A stretch of DNA of 6,249 nucleotides from Escherichia coli (GTDB lineage: Bacteria > Pseudomonadota > Gammaproteobacteria > Enterobacterales > Enterobacteriaceae), in NCBI RefSeq assembly GCF_003334785.1, contig NZ_QOWV01000039.1, one strand, 5' to 3'. Below, piece after piece: positions 1 through 6,249 of the stretch. The notes beneath the pieces are model-generated. The model saw only the letters and a list, made by a program, of their open reading frames with translations, was not told the origin of the DNA and searched no databases. Position 1 is the first letter of the stretch. Every line of letters starts with the position of its first letter. The translations under genes and the position numbers were made by a program.

Positions 1-49
1 GAATGGCCCTCCAACCGTGTTGACGAACTCCTGCCATGGAACGTAGTAC

Positions 50-379
50 TCACCAATAAATAAGCGTCAATACGGTGCTCCGTTGACGCTTACAGAGAAT
101 GCGTTTGACCGCCTCGCTATATACTTCCGAGCGTTCTCTTTTCCCAACAGAAATCACGAAAACGACAACTTTCTCGTCTATAACCTGGTATACAAGGCGA
201 TAGCCTGAAGACCGGAGCTTAATCTTGTAACAATCAGGCATACCACGGAGCTTGTTTGCTTCAATCCGGGGTGACTCAAGTACTTCAACCAGCTTCTTTT
301 TCAACTGTTCACGTACCGTCGAGCCCAGCTTTCGCCATTCCTTTAGTGCCCGCTCGTCAAAATCCAGAAAATACGCCAT
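50..379 (-). CDS. relE: RelE mRNA-interferase toxin (RelE/ParE family), 109 aa; first 95 aa match E. coli RelE as recalled, followed by a 14-aa C-terminal extension
   Basis: Translation MAYFLDFDERALKEWRKLGSTV...VYSEAVKRIL is recognisably RelE; start codon shares one base with the relB stop (TGATG); the gene sits directly downstream of relB on the same strand. Confidence 0.9.
   Translation of the reverse strand: MAYFLDFDERALKEWRKLGSTVREQLKKKLVEVLESPRIEANKLRGMPDCYKIKLRSSGYRLVYQVIDEKVVVFVISVGKRERSEVYSEAVKRILCKRQRSTVLTLIYW
53..91 (-). terminator. Stem-loop (9-bp stem 62-70/83-91, inner CGG/CCG pairs) followed on the minus strand by UAUUUAUU; probable terminator or mRNA fold at the relE 3' end
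   Basis: Inverted repeat AAGCGTCAA...TTGACGCTT read directly; U-rich tract follows on the minus strand. The extended relE ORF reads through it. Confidence 0.4.
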
Positions 380-618
380 CAGAGTTCATCCAGCGTCACA
401 CGTACTGGCTTAGGATTACGAAGCCGTTCTTTCACTATCTCCACAAGTTCAGCATCTTCATCACTCAGGAGTGTCTGTTTGAACGGCAAGCGTTCATTGT
501 CAGCGATATACTCGAGCATGAGACGAAGCGCTTCAGAAGGAGTTACACCCATTTTTTCAAGCGCGGCGTAAGAACGCGCTTTAAGTTCATCGTCAATACG
601 CAGGTTAATGCTACCCAT
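379..618 (-). CDS. relB: RelB antitoxin, 79 aa
   Basis: Translation MGSINLRIDDELKARSYA...PKPVRVTLDEL matches RelB as recalled; GAGGTG Shine-Dalgarno about 6 nt upstream of the ATG; overlaps the relE start. Confidence 0.92.
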   Translation of the reverse strand: MGSINLRIDDELKARSYAALEKMGVTPSEALRLMLEYIADNERLPFKQTLLSDEDAELVEIVKERLRNPKPVRVTLDEL

Positions 619-700
619 GTCTTACACCTCTTGTAATTACAAATGTCATTACAAGTATCGCACTACAACATGCTTAGGGCAAGTCACGAAGGAAGTCAGA
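619..700 (-). promoter_or_regulatory. relBE promoter region with relO-type operator (perfect 12-bp palindrome TTGTAATTACAA at 631-642, plus partial repeat to 655)
   Basis: Palindrome read directly, immediately upstream of relB; consistent with RelB/RelE autoregulation at an operator overlapping the promoter. Exact -35/-10 positions not resolved by eye. Confidence 0.6.
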
Positions 701-948
701 AAGTAGTCGTAAGAACGGTGATCACTGTCCGCTTTGTGCCAGGAGCAGCCATTGCTAAGTCCATCCTGTATTGTGCAGGTCAGCTCGTTTTTAAAGAGTC
801 CGGCCATCATCTTACTGGTACAGACACCATATACTTTGTGACGGTCAGGCTACATATGCACAACTCAACTTATTCATCTATTTTTTGCTTTAGCATGTCA
901 GTGTTGCTTTCTCGTCGGCGGGTGAGCGGTGACCTGACCTGTCGATAA
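643..948 (+). CDS. ydfV: Hypothetical protein, 101 aa, in the position and of the size of E. coli ydfV (divergent from relB)
   Basis: ORF of the expected length between relB and flxA; no recognisable Shine-Dalgarno; the start lies inside the relO operator. Protein sequence not independently recognised. Confidence 0.35.
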   Translation: MSLQVSHYNMLRASHEGSQKVVVRTVITVRFVPGAAIAKSILYCAGQLVFKESGHHLTGTDTIYFVTVRLHMHNSTYSSIFCFSMSVLLSRRRVSGDLTCR

Positions 949-1100
949 AGGAACGTAACACGTTTTATGCAACACCCGCATGCGGCAGAAAATTATTGCC
1001 GAACGTTTACCCCTGTCAACAAGCTTTACTTTCTGAGGCGCGCCAGCCCGCGAGGAAAACAATCTGAACATCAAACAATTAATGACACAAGAAATACGAT

Positions 1101-1127
1101 TAAAGATTTTTTTGTGCATGCCGATAG
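1101..1127 (+). promoter_or_regulatory. sigma28 (FliA)-type promoter: TAAAGATT, 11-bp spacer, GCCGATAG
   Basis: Matches the sigma28 consensus TAAAGTTT-N11-GCCGATAA at 7/8 and 7/8 with the exact spacer, about 24 bp upstream of the flxA start; flxA is a known FliA-dependent gene. Confidence 0.6.
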
Positions 1128-1150
1128 TGCTTTTTTAAAAGGAGAAATCT

Positions 1151-1483
1151 ATGTCTGTCACAATTCAGGGAAATACCTCAACCGTTATTTCAAACAACTC
1201 CGCCCCGGAAGGAACATCAGAAATAGCCAAAATCACAAGACAAATTCAGGTGCTGACTGAAAAGCTTGGGAAAATCTCATCGGAAGAGGGGATGACGACA
1301 CAGCAGAAAAAAGAAATGGCTGCATTGGTACAGAAGCAAATTGAAAGCCTCTGGGCTCAACTGGAGCAGTTGTTAAGGCAGCAGGCAGAGAAAAAGAATG
1401 AAGACGCGACAGTTCAGCCTGATAAAAAAGAAGAGAAAAAAGACGATACAAATACCGCTGGCACCATTGATATTTACGTCTAA
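1151..1483 (+). CDS. flxA: FlxA-like protein (FliA-regulated), 110 aa
   Basis: AAGGAG Shine-Dalgarno about 6 nt upstream of the ATG; translation MSVTIQGNTSTVISNNSAPEG... with a Q/E/K-rich coiled-coil-like centre; gene order relB-ydfV-flxA as in the Qin prophage. Confidence 0.85.
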   Translation: MSVTIQGNTSTVISNNSAPEGTSEIAKITRQIQVLTEKLGKISSEEGMTTQQKKEMAALVQKQIESLWAQLEQLLRQQAEKKNEDATVQPDKKEEKKDDTNTAGTIDIYV

Positions 1484-1497
1484 GTGACAGCCGTATT

Positions 1498-1522
1498 GTG
1501 GCCCTCATCGGGCCACTTTTCG
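1498..1522 (+). terminator. Rho-independent terminator downstream of flxA
   Basis: GTGGCCC-tcatc-GGGCCAC hairpin followed by TTTTC, 15 bp after the flxA stop. Confidence 0.6.
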
Positions 1523-1570
1523 CCATCAGCCTTTTCTTTAAAGACATATTATCTTTGTATCATTTCTGAT

Positions 1571-3419
1571 AGTTAACATTACAAGATATAAGTAATGGAC
1601 GCACTCCCAATTAGTCTATTTAAATCGCCACGAGTTTAACTGACAACCCATGATCAATTATGAATTGCAACTATTTCTGTAGTCACTTTTGTGGGGACAG
1701 TCCACAAAACTGCCAACTTCCGCTTCTTGCTCTTAGCGGACATTAGCATAGGCTATTTACCATAACGCCTCATTACGCGCACCGCCCAGACTGACTCAGC
1801 GCGTTTCTGGCATATCCCCGGTAAAACAAGTAACAAACCACCCGAAAATGAACACCAGAAACGCGACTTAAGAATCTACCCTATGAATGGATATGCACTC
1901 AACCGAATCGATCTTGGTTTCAATCTTTTTTATCGGGATCAGGCTTCTTTTTAGGTAACTTCGGGGGCTTAACTTGCTGATGACTTTGCGTTCGGCGCGT
2001 AAGCCAGGGATGGTCAGCTTTAGGTTTAACATAGTATTTTGAGCGTAAATCAATACGGGCATTATCCACTCGTTCATGGACACTCTTTTCATCATCCAGT
2101 GGTATAGGCTCCGGGCCATCAACATACTTTTCCCAGCCCAGCGCTTTCCCGTCATACAGAACGTTAATTTCACCGTCAAAGTTCTCGCATACAGTAACAA
2201 CCGAATGCCTAAGTCGATATCCCCGGCCCTCACTGCGTACCTGAAACGCACTGCTTTTGTACTGGAAAGTGAGATTTTTAGACAGAACGCGCTTCGCCTG
2301 TAGGCTGAAGATATAACCCAGTTCCTCTTCAGAATGGTGCACATCAAGATGAGCATTATCAGTAGTACGAGGCGACGTAGCGAACCGGTTGTTATAGGCT
2401 TCAATAAAGGTCGGCAACCATGCATTTGCTGTTTCAATATCACTGATATTCTGAAGCCGCATTTCTTTGACCAGCCTGTCCTGTAGTGTCTGATTGGCGC
2501 GCTCTACCCGCCCTTTTGCCTGCGGGCTGTTGGCATGGATTGGCTCGATGCCCAGTGTCTTTATCGCACGAGTGAACTGGGTCAGCTCACCTTCCCGCTC
2601 TGGGTTATTTACCCTGAATATACTGTGTCTATCAGAGTAGAGAGCGAGCGGTACGCCATGATCATTAAGGTAACCCCGGAGGGTTTCCATGTAAGCCCGG
2701 GTTGTTTCAGCAGGCACAAAACGCAACGCCATCAACGCACTGGTGGCATCATCAATGAAAACGATCAGTGTACATCTGGGGCCTCGATTTTCAAACCAGT
2801 CATGAGGTGAGCCATCAATCTGGATCAGTTCACCGTAAGATGGTCGTCGCATGCGGCGTTGATATATACGGGCAATTTTACGACGGCGTTCACGCCATAA
2901 CCCCTCTTCTATCATCCACTTTCTGAGAGTTTCAACGGATAAAGATAAACCGTGTATCTCGCGCAATTTTTCGCACGCAAACGTAGGTCCAAAATCAGCG
3001 TAACGGCCTTTGAGGAGTGAAATTACTGTTGCTCTGAATTCAGTAGAAAAGGAATTATTAGGACGCTTTCCACGTCGGTGGGAAACCAGACCAGAAGGCC
3101 CTTCATTTCTATACCGTTGCACCAGACGTTTAACCTGCCGAATAGAAATGCCAATGCGTGCCGCAGCTTGTTCCTGAATAATCTGAAGTCGGTGGAGTTC
3201 CTTATGACTCATCGTAACAGTCTCTTTGATCATGAAAAATCCCCCAGAGAATTGTCTGGGGACATTTTAGAATGGTTCAAAGGGGACATTACAGCTTGGT
3301 GTTAACAATAGCCTGCTTCTCCGTGCCTTTCGGCACGTAAGAGGCTAACCTACATGTGTCTAGCATGAAATTGGCCTCAGATTAATGTTAAGCGTCTTGC
3401 AGGACGCGTAATGTTAACT
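1571..3419 (-). mobile_element. ISNCY-family (IS1202-group-like) insertion sequence; boundaries tentative
   Basis: Boundaries are placed at a perfect 12-bp inverted repeat (AGTTAACATTAC at 1571-1582; GTAATGTTAACT at 3408-3419) bracketing the transposase gene. No target-site duplication was found and a 12-mer match could arise by chance in 6 kb. Confidence 0.35.
1920..3233 (-). CDS. ISNCY-family DDE transposase (IS481/IS1202-like), 437 aa
   Basis: N-terminal helix-turn-helix (AARIGISIRQVKRLVQRY); integrase-type catalytic core with D in IQIDGS, D in FIDDATS and E in SPQAKGRVERANQTL; lysine/proline-rich C-terminal tail. An alternative ATG at 3212 (MSHKEL...) is in frame. Confidence 0.9.
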   Translation of the reverse strand: MIKETVTMSHKELHRLQIIQEQAAARIGISIRQVKRLVQRYRNEGPSGLVSHRRGKRPNNSFSTEFRATVISLLKGRYADFGPTFACEKLREIHGLSLSVETLRKWMIEEGLWRERRRKIARIYQRRMRRPSYGELIQIDGSPHDWFENRGPRCTLIVFIDDATSALMALRFVPAETTRAYMETLRGYLNDHGVPLALYSDRHSIFRVNNPEREGELTQFTRAIKTLGIEPIHANSPQAKGRVERANQTLQDRLVKEMRLQNISDIETANAWLPTFIEAYNNRFATSPRTTDNAHLDVHHSEEELGYIFSLQAKRVLSKNLTFQYKSSAFQVRSEGRGYRLRHSVVTVCENFDGEINVLYDGKALGWEKYVDGPEPIPLDDEKSVHERVDNARIDLRSKYYVKPKADHPWLTRRTQSHQQVKPPKLPKKKPDPDKKD

Positions 3420-3567
3420 GGGGCTTTTCTCTATCTGCCGTTGGTGTCCATGCCCGAGGCAGATAGCCTCAAGCACCCGCAGTCATTCTACTTAACTAAG
3501 ATTTCCCCGCAAACCGTTTTTGTCCAGCACAGTAAATATCCAACTAAACCAATGGAGTTCGCTGTAT

Positions 3568-3747
3568 TTACCGCCAGTATTCAATGCACATGACCGCCAT
3601 GAACACCCCTAAAAAAAGGGCATTTATATATCCAAATATTAATATCAAAACATCAACTTTTTCCATATACCTTGCTGTGAAGATGATGGGCATACATGAT
3701 GCGAACAACCAGAACGCAACAAACAAAAACTGCAATGCGTTTTTCAT
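3568..3747 (-). CDS. Small hydrophobic membrane protein, 59 aa, two predicted transmembrane helices
   Basis: Consensus AGGAGG Shine-Dalgarno 5 nt upstream of the ATG at 3747; translation MKNALQFLFVAFWLFASCMPIIFTARYMEKVDVLILIFGYINALFLGVFMAVMCIEYWR. The ORF-track version (start 3786) has no ribosome-binding site. Confidence 0.45.
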   Translation of the reverse strand: MKNALQFLFVAFWLFASCMPIIFTARYMEKVDVLILIFGYINALFLGVFMAVMCIEYWR

Positions 3748-4001
3748 TATTCCTCCTACAATCAATGTGCAATTACATTTAAACACACCTCAATTTGGCC
3801 GGACATATAAATATCTAAACCAGAAAAAATCACTTACATAGCGTTACAAACTCTTTAGTCTAAAGGTTCATCGTAAAACATTCCCCATACTTATCAGTCC
3901 GTTCCGCGCCAGGTAGCTCATTGCCTTATCTGGCAACCTGTAATCAGGTTTCCGCTTTTTCAGTTGGCTGGTCGTTTAACCGACATAGTTAATCCATTAA
4001 T

Positions 4002-4289
4002 CTAGTTGCCGGATGTTGGTGGATTTTCGCGTTTTAGTTGTTCATAAAAGTGCACAGCTTTAACCAGTTCTTCTGATGTAACTGGGACTGGTGAGGCAGT
4101 GAATAAGGCCTGAATTTGATAGTTCGGCCTGTCGTTACAATCCTCTTTTTTCGGTACATATTTCCAGTCACCAGACCACTACTTCCCCTGAAAGTCCGTA
4201 ACGCCTTTTTTCACGTAGCGATATCGCCATGCCACTGGTTTTGCTTGCCCCGCCGTTTCATGCCCTTCCTGATAATTAATCTCGCTCAT
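4002..4289 (-). pseudogene. Small prophage-like ORF (about 95 codons) interrupted by an in-frame amber codon at 4179-4181
   Basis: Reads MSEINYQEGHETAGQAKPVAWRYRYVKKGVTDFQGK-TAG-WSGDWKYVPKKEDCNDRPNYQIQ...; its ATG overlaps the TGA of the upstream ORF (ATGA). Confidence 0.25.
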
Positions 4290-4477
4290 TCATCGCCCCA
4301 CTCATCACAATATGCTTCGACCGGAGTTTTTCCCGCTTCATAGTCATCACGCTAGGATTCGACATCAGCAGCACTTCCACCGCGTAACTCACCATAGTCC
4401 ATTAATAGTTCATCCCGCTCTTCAAAACTGATGTTATATTTAGCTGAACAAAAATCAGCCACTTTGTTCTTCCTCAT
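4286..4477 (-). pseudogene. Small acidic ORF (about 63 codons) interrupted by an in-frame amber codon at 4352-4354
   Basis: Reads MRKNKVADFCSAKYNISFEERDELLMDYGELRGGSAADVES-TAG-RDDYEAGKTPVEAYCDEWGDE; an internal GTG at codon 6 is preceded by GAGGAAG; stop overlaps the next start. Confidence 0.2.
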
Positions 4478-4899
4478 CGTCTTTTATTTCGTGGTATGAG
4501 TAATTGCAGTAGTTAAAGAAAATTTCTTATGCTCCGTCATGAATTTCCTCAGGTGTTGCGTCATCGTCCACTTCGAATACATCCTCAAAATCTCCACCAG
4601 CTATTCCCGTTTCAATAATAATTTTGAACTTTCGCATTTCACTACCGCCCTTTCGGGCGGCCTCCTGATGTTCTGAGGGTGCAGAAATCCATCCGGTTAA
4701 GGATTAAATTTTATTTACAGAACTGAATTTAATTATTCAGATATACGTATCTGTAGCCTTACGAATCTACTCACTGGATGCCTCTTTCATAAAAATAATC
4801 CAGTGGGTTTTATCGTTTTTTCCCTGTTCGTTGACAGATAACAGGTTTTCTGTCTGTCAGTGCCAGAATCTGGCTTACCGGTATTTGCGTTTCATTCCA

Positions 4900-5256
4900 T
4901 TAAAAAATCAGAACGCCGTGCGGCCTCAACACCCGAAAGGCTTCTTTAAATCTCTGTCGCGAATCATCACGCCAGGCATCTTTATTCAGCCGTCCATATT
5001 TCTTTCCCATCCAGGCGTTATCACCAACACTCTCAAGATGCGGAGGGTCTAATACAACCATCGAAAAAGATGCGTCTGCAAATGATAATGCACGAAAATC
5101 TGCGATAATGTCAGGGCTGATAATCAAGCGTCTCCCATTGCGTAATGTGTATCCTTCTTTTCTGATATCGCTGAATATCGCCCGTTCGTCAGACTTATCG
5201 AACCAGAACATGCGGCTGCCACAGCACATATCAAGAATGGTTGCCGGTGCACTCAC
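4900..5256 (-). CDS. Putative SAM-dependent methyltransferase (motif I ILDMCCGS; motif IV VVLDPPH), 118 aa; probably cut short by a premature TAA
   Basis: GTG start overlapping the stop of the upstream ORF; motif I and a DPPH motif about 55 residues apart, as in small N6-adenine/N4-cytosine-type methyltransferases; after the TAA at 4900-4902 the same frame stays open 29 codons (WNETQIPVSQILALTDRKPVICQRTGKKR). Confidence 0.6.
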   Translation of the reverse strand: MSAPATILDMCCGSRMFWFDKSDERAIFSDIRKEGYTLRNGRRLIISPDIIADFRALSFADASFSMVVLDPPHLESVGDNAWMGKKYGRLNKDAWRDDSRQRFKEAFRVLRPHGVLIF

Positions 5257-5519
5257 TGCGCCACGTCCTGAAAATTACCCTGATAGAAAGCCAGTATGCG
5301 CTGCATAACTTCGCTCTTCCGGCACTCGCGACAGATTATGTTTAGGCGACTGTCGTAGCGACGTATTTCTCCGTCAGGTGATGACCAGATAAGGTCCGGA
5401 TCAACCACAGCAGGTTTCTTCACCTTTGCCCTCGAGAGTTTTTTGCGGGCGTTTTGCCAGTCCTTACGCGCCTGTTCAGAGGGGAATAACCCGTATCCGG
5501 AGCTTAAGTTGCACGCCAT
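5253..5519 (-). CDS. Hypothetical basic protein, 88 aa (contains CRECRK), coupled to the methyltransferase gene
   Basis: Stop overlaps the methyltransferase GTG start (GTGA); no clear Shine-Dalgarno; its 5' end overlaps the longest version of the opposite-strand ORF. Confidence 0.3.
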   Translation of the reverse strand: MACNLSSGYGLFPSEQARKDWQNARKKLSRAKVKKPAVVDPDLIWSSPDGEIRRYDSRLNIICRECRKSEVMQRILAFYQGNFQDVAQ

Positions 5520-5892
5520 TGGGTGGGTTAAGCATAAATGTATTCCTGGTGCTAAATGGCCCGAAATTCAGGCAGAGATGCGCATCTGGAAAAAACGTCG
5601 CGAAGGTGAACGCAAGGAAACCGGAAAATACACGTCTGTTGTTGATCTCGCCCGCGCCAGAGCCAATCAACAGTACACTGAAAATTCAACAGGAAAAATC
5701 AGCCCGGTCATTGCTGCCATTCATCGCGAATACAAGCAGACATGGAAAACACTGGATGACGAACTGGCCTACGCTCTCTGGCCTAGTGATGTGGATGCCG
5801 GAAACATTGACGGCAGCATCCATCGCTGGGCAAAAAAAGAAGTTATCGACAACGACCGCGAAGACTGGAAGCGTGAGGTGTACTGGCAATAG
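5443..5892 (+). CDS. Hypothetical protein of unknown function (149 aa from TTG 5443; alternative starts TTG 5509 with a GGAG site, or ATG 5578)
   Basis: Long open frame with mixed charged composition (…KISPVIAAIHREYKQTWKTLDDELAYALWPSDVDAGNIDGSIHRWAKKEVIDNDREDWKREVYWQ); the 3' end abuts or lies within the IS3-family terminus. Confidence 0.45.
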   Translation: MRAFCQSLRACSEGNNPYPELKLHAIGWVKHKCIPGAKWPEIQAEMRIWKKRREGERKETGKYTSVVDLARARANQQYTENSTGKISPVIAAIHREYKQTWKTLDDELAYALWPSDVDAGNIDGSIHRWAKKEVIDNDREDWKREVYWQ

Positions 5893-6249
5893 CGGACACT
5901 ACCATTTGTTCTTTTTTTAAGCAGCCATCTGATGATATTTTTCCCTGAAGGCTGCCGGGGAGATATTCCCCAGACGAGAGTGACGACGCTGACGATTGTA
6001 GAAAATCTCAATGTATTCCCGTATTACTGAGATGGCTTCATCCCGGTTATTAAAACGATAGTGGCTCAGGCTCTCATTTTTCAGCGTTCCCCAGAAGCTT
6101 TCCATCGGAGCGTTGTCGTAACAGTTACCTTTACGCGACATTGATGTTTTCAGACCAAACTGCTCCTGTATGACCCGGTAATCGTATGCGCAGTACTGTG
6201 AACCTCGATCGGAGTGGTGGATTAGCACGGCAGGTGGGCGCTGGCTCCT
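5874..6249 (-). mobile_element. IS3-family insertion sequence, partial (continues beyond window); terminus near 5874-5900
   Basis: Transposase OrfB C-terminus ends at 5917; the adjacent GGCAATAGCGGACAC (5885-5899) resembles the IS3 terminal repeat as recalled (GCAATAGTGGACAC). Exact terminal base uncertain by about 10 bp. Confidence 0.6.
5917..6249 (-). CDS. IS3-family transposase OrfB (integrase core), C-terminal part; 5' end lies outside the window
   Basis: Translation ...VLIHHSDRGSQYCAYDYR...MSRKGNCYDNAPMESFWGTLKNE...YNRQRRHSRLGNISPAAF carries the IS3-family DDE-region signatures (HSDRGSQY; KGNCYDNAPMESF); the frame stays open to the window edge. Confidence 0.9.
   Translation of the reverse strand, partial: RSQRPPAVLIHHSDRGSQYCAYDYRVIQEQFGLKTSMSRKGNCYDNAPMESFWGTLKNESLSHYRFNNRDEAISVIREYIEIFYNRQRRHSRLGNISPAAFREKYHQMAA

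Follow-up and report, generated by a model that had tools for sequence, protein, structure and literature searches.

The sigma-28 promoter of the Qin-type prophage gene flxA and its conservation across the FlxA-like family

We analysed a window of 6,249 nucleotides from Escherichia coli (contig NZ_QOWV01000039.1) in which positions 1101-1127 almost certainly constitute flxAp, a genuine class 3 flagellar promoter for RNA polymerase carrying sigma-28 (FliA). The assignment is supported by the sequence motif and how strongly it stands out from chance, by sequence identity with the K-12 promoter and by conservation within the FlxA family, together with experiments that were carried out in K-12 rather than in this host, where FliA is presumably expressed. 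Base for base, flxAp is already known as a long-established, repeatedly validated FliA target of E. coli K-12, and the promoter itself adds nothing new. The modest value of the analysis lies in its comparative result, which is of mild interest for specialists of the flagellar regulon: conservation of a sigma-28 promoter throughout the FlxA-like family and a chromosomal, yfeR-linked home of FlxA-like genes, neither of which we found in the literature searched. From the sequences, the most economical reading would be that an old class 3 cassette of gene plus promoter was captured by mobile elements.

Both promoter boxes and the 11-nt spacing between them were read directly from the sequence (Table 1), as expected from the original prediction of a near-consensus sigma-28 promoter, and the strong ribosome-binding site that it placed downstream was likewise seen. 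Compared with the sigma-28 consensus TAAAGTTT-N11-GCCGATAA, flxAp agreed at 14 of 16 positions with exact spacing; its two deviations were A instead of T within the -35 box and G instead of A at the last position of the -10 box. The promoter is on the same strand as flxA, with 23 nt separating the -10 box from the start codon. With three or fewer mismatches allowed, flxAp was the only site for this consensus on either strand of the window, where chance would supply 0.07 per window (one or more in 14 of 200 shuffles). Two or fewer mismatches in 16 have a probability of 1129/4^16 = 2.6e-7 per position under uniform base composition, or about 3e-3 per window over both strands. Table 2 of Fitzgerald et al. 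2014 (PMC4183435) lists in-vivo FliA sites; leaving flxAp out, we built a sigma-28 weight matrix from the other 51. On this matrix flxAp scored 18.9 bits and ranked 13th among the 52 FliA sites, a score reached in 1 of 2000 first-order Markov random windows (window maxima: mean 10.9, sd 2.1).

Table 1. Features of the flxA transcription unit, in window coordinates.
Feature	Position	Strand	Basis
flxAp -35 element, TAAAGATT	1101..1108	+	7/8 matches to TAAAGTTT
flxAp spacer, tttttgtgcat, 11 nt (canonical sigma-28 spacing)	1109..1119	+	read directly
flxAp -10 element, GCCGATAG	1120..1127	+	7/8 matches to GCCGATAA
Probable transcription start region, 5' UTR ~14-17 nt	1134..1137	+	distance from -10 box
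Shine-Dalgarno AAGGAG, 6 nt upstream of ATG	1139..1144	+	read directly
flxA coding sequence, 110 aa + stop, ATG at 1151	1151..1483	+	ORF, Pfam, phrog, annotation in E. coli genomes
Predicted intrinsic terminator, stem GUGGCCC/GGGCCAC, loop UCAUC, then UUUU	1498..1520	+	folding

Positions 620-1620 of the window agreed fully (100% identity) with numerous E. coli genomes, MG1655 derivatives among them, in which ydfV and flxA are annotated, and were matched in 1283 of 5426 complete E. coli genomes (~24%), nearly all at 99% identity or more. Because the sequences are identical, the published K-12 experiments apply to flxAp here. A FliA ChIP-seq peak at flxA carries the motif TAAAGATTTTTTTGTGCATGCCGATAGT, the same 28-mer as window positions 1101-1128, with a fold-above-threshold (FAT) score of 16, below the 43-110 of core flagellar promoters (Fitzgerald et al. 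2014, PMC4183435). In the same study flxA RNA fell significantly by RNA-seq, from 280 in motile MG1655 to 2 in a fliA deletion. This amounts to the comparison of wild type with a fliA deletion put forward with the original prediction, already carried out on the same sequence in K-12 (PMC4183435). In microarrays, flxA changed -28.4-fold in a fliA deletion and +8.2-fold 5 min after sigma-28 induction (Zhao et al. 2007, PMC1935009), and genomic SELEX in vitro showed a binding peak between ydfV and flxA with the sigma-28 holoenzyme alone (Shimada et al. 2017, PMC5493296). The gene had been described in 1997 as FliA-dependent and not needed for motility (Ide & Kutsukake 1997). It was strongly up together with motB, fliC, cheA and tsr in a study of motility-activating mutations upstream of flhDC, and it shifts together with flagellar genes in transcription-factor knockouts.

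FlhDC turns on fliA, and the anti-sigma factor FlgM holds FliA until the hook-basal body is complete and FlgM is exported. Free FliA would then recognise TAAAGATT (-35) and GCCGATAG (-10), 11 nt apart. Transcription from sigma-28 promoters usually starts ~7-10 nt past the end of the -10 box, so the start was placed at ~1134-1137, where the first purine is A1137. The product would be a monocistronic mRNA of ~385 nt, comprising a leader of 14-17 nt with AAGGAG, the 110-codon flxA and the hairpin at 1498-1520, which may act as its terminator. This hairpin begins 15 nt 3' of the flxA stop, and the region 1481-1535 was predicted to fold at -17.3 kcal/mol (z = -3.0), with none of 200 shuffles folding as well; the U-tract is short (4 U), and a stricter terminator scan did not list the hairpin. 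The -10 box should be needed, such that changing GCCGATAG to GCCTTTAG would abolish expression. The promoter would be silent if the host had lost flhDC or fliA function, as in Shigella-like lineages.

The gene downstream is flxA, as originally named: its product matched Pfam FlxA PF14282 (E = 2.9e-14, residues 7-101 on model positions 2-96 of 101), and it is annotated as flxA in identical E. coli genomes. The product also matched phrog_11044, a family of unknown function (E = 1.8e-71); its other Pfam matches were weak coiled-coil noise, and an NCBIfam search returned no match. An AlphaFold model (pLDDT 64) predicted disordered residues at 1-21, a helical hairpin formed by helices 24-42 and 50-87, and a disordered stretch at 88-110. 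A Foldseek search of this model against the PDB gave generic helical hairpins alone, all at E of 0.9 or above. Neither NCBIfam, PHROGs nor Pfam, nor the AlphaFold model and Foldseek, allowed a function to be assigned. That its function is poorly defined, as the prediction had remarked, agrees with its listing among the uncharacterised 'y-ome' genes of E. coli in 2024 (PMC11551758).

The window from 93 to 6249 was 100% identical to ordinary E. coli isolates, such as FORC 064. In that strain the annotated gene order is rzpQ-rrrQ-essD-cspB-ydfT(Q)-ydfU-rem-hokD-relEB-ydfV-flxA-ydfW, with cspF also among the genes there and ydfT being a Q-type antiterminator; past ydfW lie IS remnants, a methyltransferase, an exonuclease fragment, an excisionase and an integrase fragment or remnant. 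The relBE-ydfV-flxA arrangement also occurs in PhiR42_1, a complete 48.7-kb lambdoid phage genome from ECOR13 and the only record in the phage collection to carry flxA. The FORC 064 context and the PhiR42_1 arrangement bear out the claim that flxA lies in prophage DNA, here a decayed lambdoid prophage of the Qin type. In PhiR42_1 flxA is on the strand opposite O, cII, Q and the lysis, head and tail genes, and in FORC 064 it likewise opposes Q, the lysis genes, O and cII, so that it runs against the early-right and late phage genes around it. With its own promoter and predicted terminator, and oriented against the surrounding phage operon, flxA appears to be an autonomous cassette within the prophage. 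GC content over flxA was 0.39-0.44 vs ~0.47 in the flanks, a small difference.

The region is rich in insertion sequences, with ISEc47, ISEsa1 (carrying a deletion) and IS600 present as elements or remnants alongside several pseudogenes. Positions 1-92 matched the end of the IS66-like ISEc47 at 100% identity, with the junction at 92/93. The element is inserted exactly at the relE stop codon (TGA to TGT), extending the relE ORF (50-379, minus strand) by 14 codons into ISEc47, to 109 aa vs 95, and the ISEc47/relE junction was absent from all 5426 complete E. coli genomes. On the other side of flxA, the annotated ydfW (1920-2069) is just the 3' end of a continuous 437-aa ORF (1920-3233, minus strand) that encodes the transposase of ISEsa1 (IS1202/ISNCY), lacking 9 aa in frame close to its N-terminus; all aligned residues were identical to those of the copy on plasmid pYK16-mcr-10 (98% identity counting the deletion). 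Two further promoter-like sequences were observed on the minus strand. Between ydfV and flxA, at 992-1019, a near-consensus sigma-70-type promoter (TTGACA-N16-AATAAT, 11 of 12 matches) points leftwards, antisense through ydfV towards relBE, and raises doubt over ydfV as a real gene. At 5842-5869 there is a second strong match to the sigma-28 matrix, TCCAGTCT-N11-GTCGATAA (17.8 bits), antisense inside a pseudogene-fragment ORF (5443-5892) and with no obvious gene downstream, resembling the many intragenic FliA sites reported in K-12.

Relatives of FlxA extend well beyond prophages. Searching 1.84 billion cluster representatives exhaustively yielded only 48, among them full-length homologues at 30-66% identity that share the C-terminal motif IDIY[VI]. 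The 66%-identical copy adjoins a TraI relaxase gene, which places it on a conjugative element, and copies at 38-43% identity lie in chromosomal contexts next to a LysR gene, gltX, yfeH-like genes and ligA. We also scanned one genome per species with an alignment of six FlxA sequences. This identified 34 loci, in named Enterobacteriaceae (Citrobacter, Enterobacter, Kluyvera, Leclercia, Lelliottia, Buttiauxella, Cedecea, Kosakonia, Pluralibacter, Pseudocitrobacter, Phytobacter, Siccibacter, Superficieibacter, Pantoea and others) and in one Burkholderiaceae metagenome match (L044). Since the same convergent yfeR-like LysR gene follows in 29 of the 34, FlxA-like genes occupy a fixed chromosomal locus (L011-L043), which adjoins yfeH, ypeB and ligA. 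At the orthologous yfeH/ypeB locus of E. coli (yfeR/yfeH), no DNA-level match to a FlxA-like gene was found in 5426 genomes. FlxA genes were present in 32 plasmid records. One of these, the conjugative IncFII plasmid pYK16-mcr-10 of Enterobacter roggenkampii (L046), carries a near-identical flxA with an identical promoter. Its positions 3713-7110 are colinear with the prophage DNA at window positions 1-3233 over hok-relE-relB-ydfV-flxA-ISEsa1, and the distance from the flxA stop to the transposase stop is 437 nt in both, so phage and plasmid backbones evidently exchange the toxin-antitoxin/flxA segment.

Upstream DNA of the homologues was scored with the E. coli FliA weight matrix, and all 33 chromosomal enterobacterial FlxA-like genes had a sigma-28 match (13.3-22.9 bits) that ended 26-34 nt upstream of the conserved MTTI start. 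In four of these loci (L027, L036, L037 and L040) the start was not taken at the most upstream ATG, and the motif was present in all four. The homologue promoters gave the consensus TCAAGnTn-N11-GCCGATAnC, with GCCGATA invariant in 33 of 33. Per position, the -10 box held 1.82 bits of information and the -35 box 0.89, as against 0.26 for the spacer and 0.17 for the 5' flank; with flanks and spacer randomised, the promoter boxes alone have been kept. As controls, 0.6% of 1323 other 253-nt windows from the same loci reached 12 bits, and the 145 regions upstream of other long ORFs all stayed below that score (maximum 10.7). Copies on mobile or less certain backgrounds had sites as well: 17.1 bits next to the TraI relaxase gene, 11.6 bits on a Citrobacter IncFIB plasmid and 21.4 bits in a copy with 45% identity whose short contig gives no clear context. 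The Burkholderiaceae metagenome match is a doubtful homologue, and its best site (9.9 bits) was unconvincing. A literature search on promoter conservation among FlxA-like or PF14282 genes returned nothing relevant, and the accessible part of a 2017 preprint on the evolution of FliA promoters does not mention flxA.

These results bear on three other explanations of the promoter. It is scarcely credible that the motif is a chance resemblance, or that flxA is driven by an overlapping or upstream sigma-70 promoter (e.g. TTAAAG-N17-GATAGT) or by read-through from ydfV. The flxAp bases do allow a weak sigma-70-like reading by eye (GATAGT 4/6, TTAAAG 3/6), and ydfV lies upstream of flxA on the same strand. 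However, a match as good as flxAp to sigma-28 has a chance of ~3e-3 to 5e-4 per window, a sigma-70 consensus scan found no plus-strand promoter in 600-1900, and conservation across homologues is restricted to the sigma-28 boxes. The identical K-12 sequence, moreover, went from an RNA value of 280 to 2 without FliA (PMC4183435), and we rejected a sigma-70 promoter or read-through on the grounds that there was no plus-strand site and no residual expression in the published fliA deletion. A further explanation accepts sigma-28 recognition and treats flxAp as intact but idle, in a decayed, IS-ridden genome that does not express FliA and leaves flxA untranscribed. We consider such a silent relic a minor possibility. 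The three IS elements or remnants, the several pseudogenes and an ISEc47/relE junction missing from complete E. coli genomes would fit it, whereas the rest of the window is indistinguishable from DNA of ordinary E. coli isolates, and the window itself is silent on flhDC and fliA status.

It is also improbable that flxAp, though real, arose or was recruited within the prophage, with a phage gene secondarily wired into the flagellar regulon. Such an origin would account for the presence of flxA in E. coli only in Qin-type prophage DNA and on plasmids, and for the lack of a DNA-level match to a chromosomal FlxA-like gene at the orthologous yfeR/yfeH locus. Against this, homologues at 30-45% identity, sitting at a fixed chromosomal locus in 29 of 34 cases, already possess a sigma-28 promoter with the same spacing to the start codon, and the TraI-adjacent and Citrobacter plasmid copies carry one too. 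As chromosomal, plasmid and phage copies all have the promoter, the gene seems to travel with it, rather than the prophage having recruited it. We therefore regard capture of an old cassette as likelier than new wiring of a phage gene into the regulon. The original prediction held that a prophage-borne gene had been placed under the host class 3 regulon: control by FliA stands, but the prophage location is not what placed the gene there, since the promoter is found in chromosomes, plasmids and phages alike.

A wider reading, which we offer tentatively, is that FlxA-like proteins are an overlooked, conserved member of the class 3 regulon with a role tied to the finished flagellum, e.g. as a substrate or partner of the export apparatus. 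Under capture of the gene with its sigma-28 promoter by phages and plasmids, the only sources of FlxA for E. coli would be Qin-type prophages (~24% of complete genomes) and plasmids. A flagellar export substrate or partner is suggested by the disordered N-terminus and helical hairpin of the predicted model and by the conserved C-terminal IDIY[VI]. If this is true, a mobile-element gene is expressed in motile cells only. FliA control appears to be under selection, because the surrounding sequence has diverged, whereas the promoter persists in more than a dozen enterobacterial genera, as well as on mobile elements, in front of genes whose proteins share 30-45% identity. Promoter conservation thus argues for a flagellum-linked role of the 'y-ome' protein FlxA, though loss of the E. 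coli copy spares motility. The flxA cassette would then be an example of a mobile element bringing in a ready-made host regulatory connection.

The closest known system is flxAp of flxA (b1566) in the Qin prophage of K-12, where the sequence is identical and the neighbours relBE, ydfV and ydfW are the same. The window differs from the K-12 locus in having ISEc47 at the relE stop codon and a nearly full ISEsa1 transposase ORF downstream, beyond which its prophage segment matches FORC 064-type strains. Like the class 3 promoters of tar, fliC, flgMN, motAB and tsr, flxAp has a TAAAG-type -35, an 11-nt spacer and a GCCGATAA-type -10; deleting fliA removes almost all RNA of tar, fliC, motA and tsr, while flgMN falls only from 451 to 318 (PMC4183435). 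Unlike canonical class 3 genes, flxA is dispensable for motility (going by the title of Ide & Kutsukake 1997), lies in mobile DNA and not in a flagellar cluster, and has a ChIP score of 16 vs 43-110. The gene resembles (yafY)ykfB of the K-12 CP4-6 prophage, which is also prophage-borne, of unknown function, bound by FliA in ChIP-seq and FliA-dependent (PMC1935009, PMC4183435). The (yafY)ykfB promoter, however, is intragenic in yafY and has a weak effect (118 vs 42), whereas flxAp is intergenic and its effect exceeds 100-fold (PMC4183435). In its own promoter, predicted terminator and orientation against the surrounding phage operon, flxA is like the morons of lambdoid prophages. It is unlike them in that its promoter depends on an alternative sigma factor of the host and that chromosomal relatives have the same promoter, through which the likely donor source of the cassette is visible.
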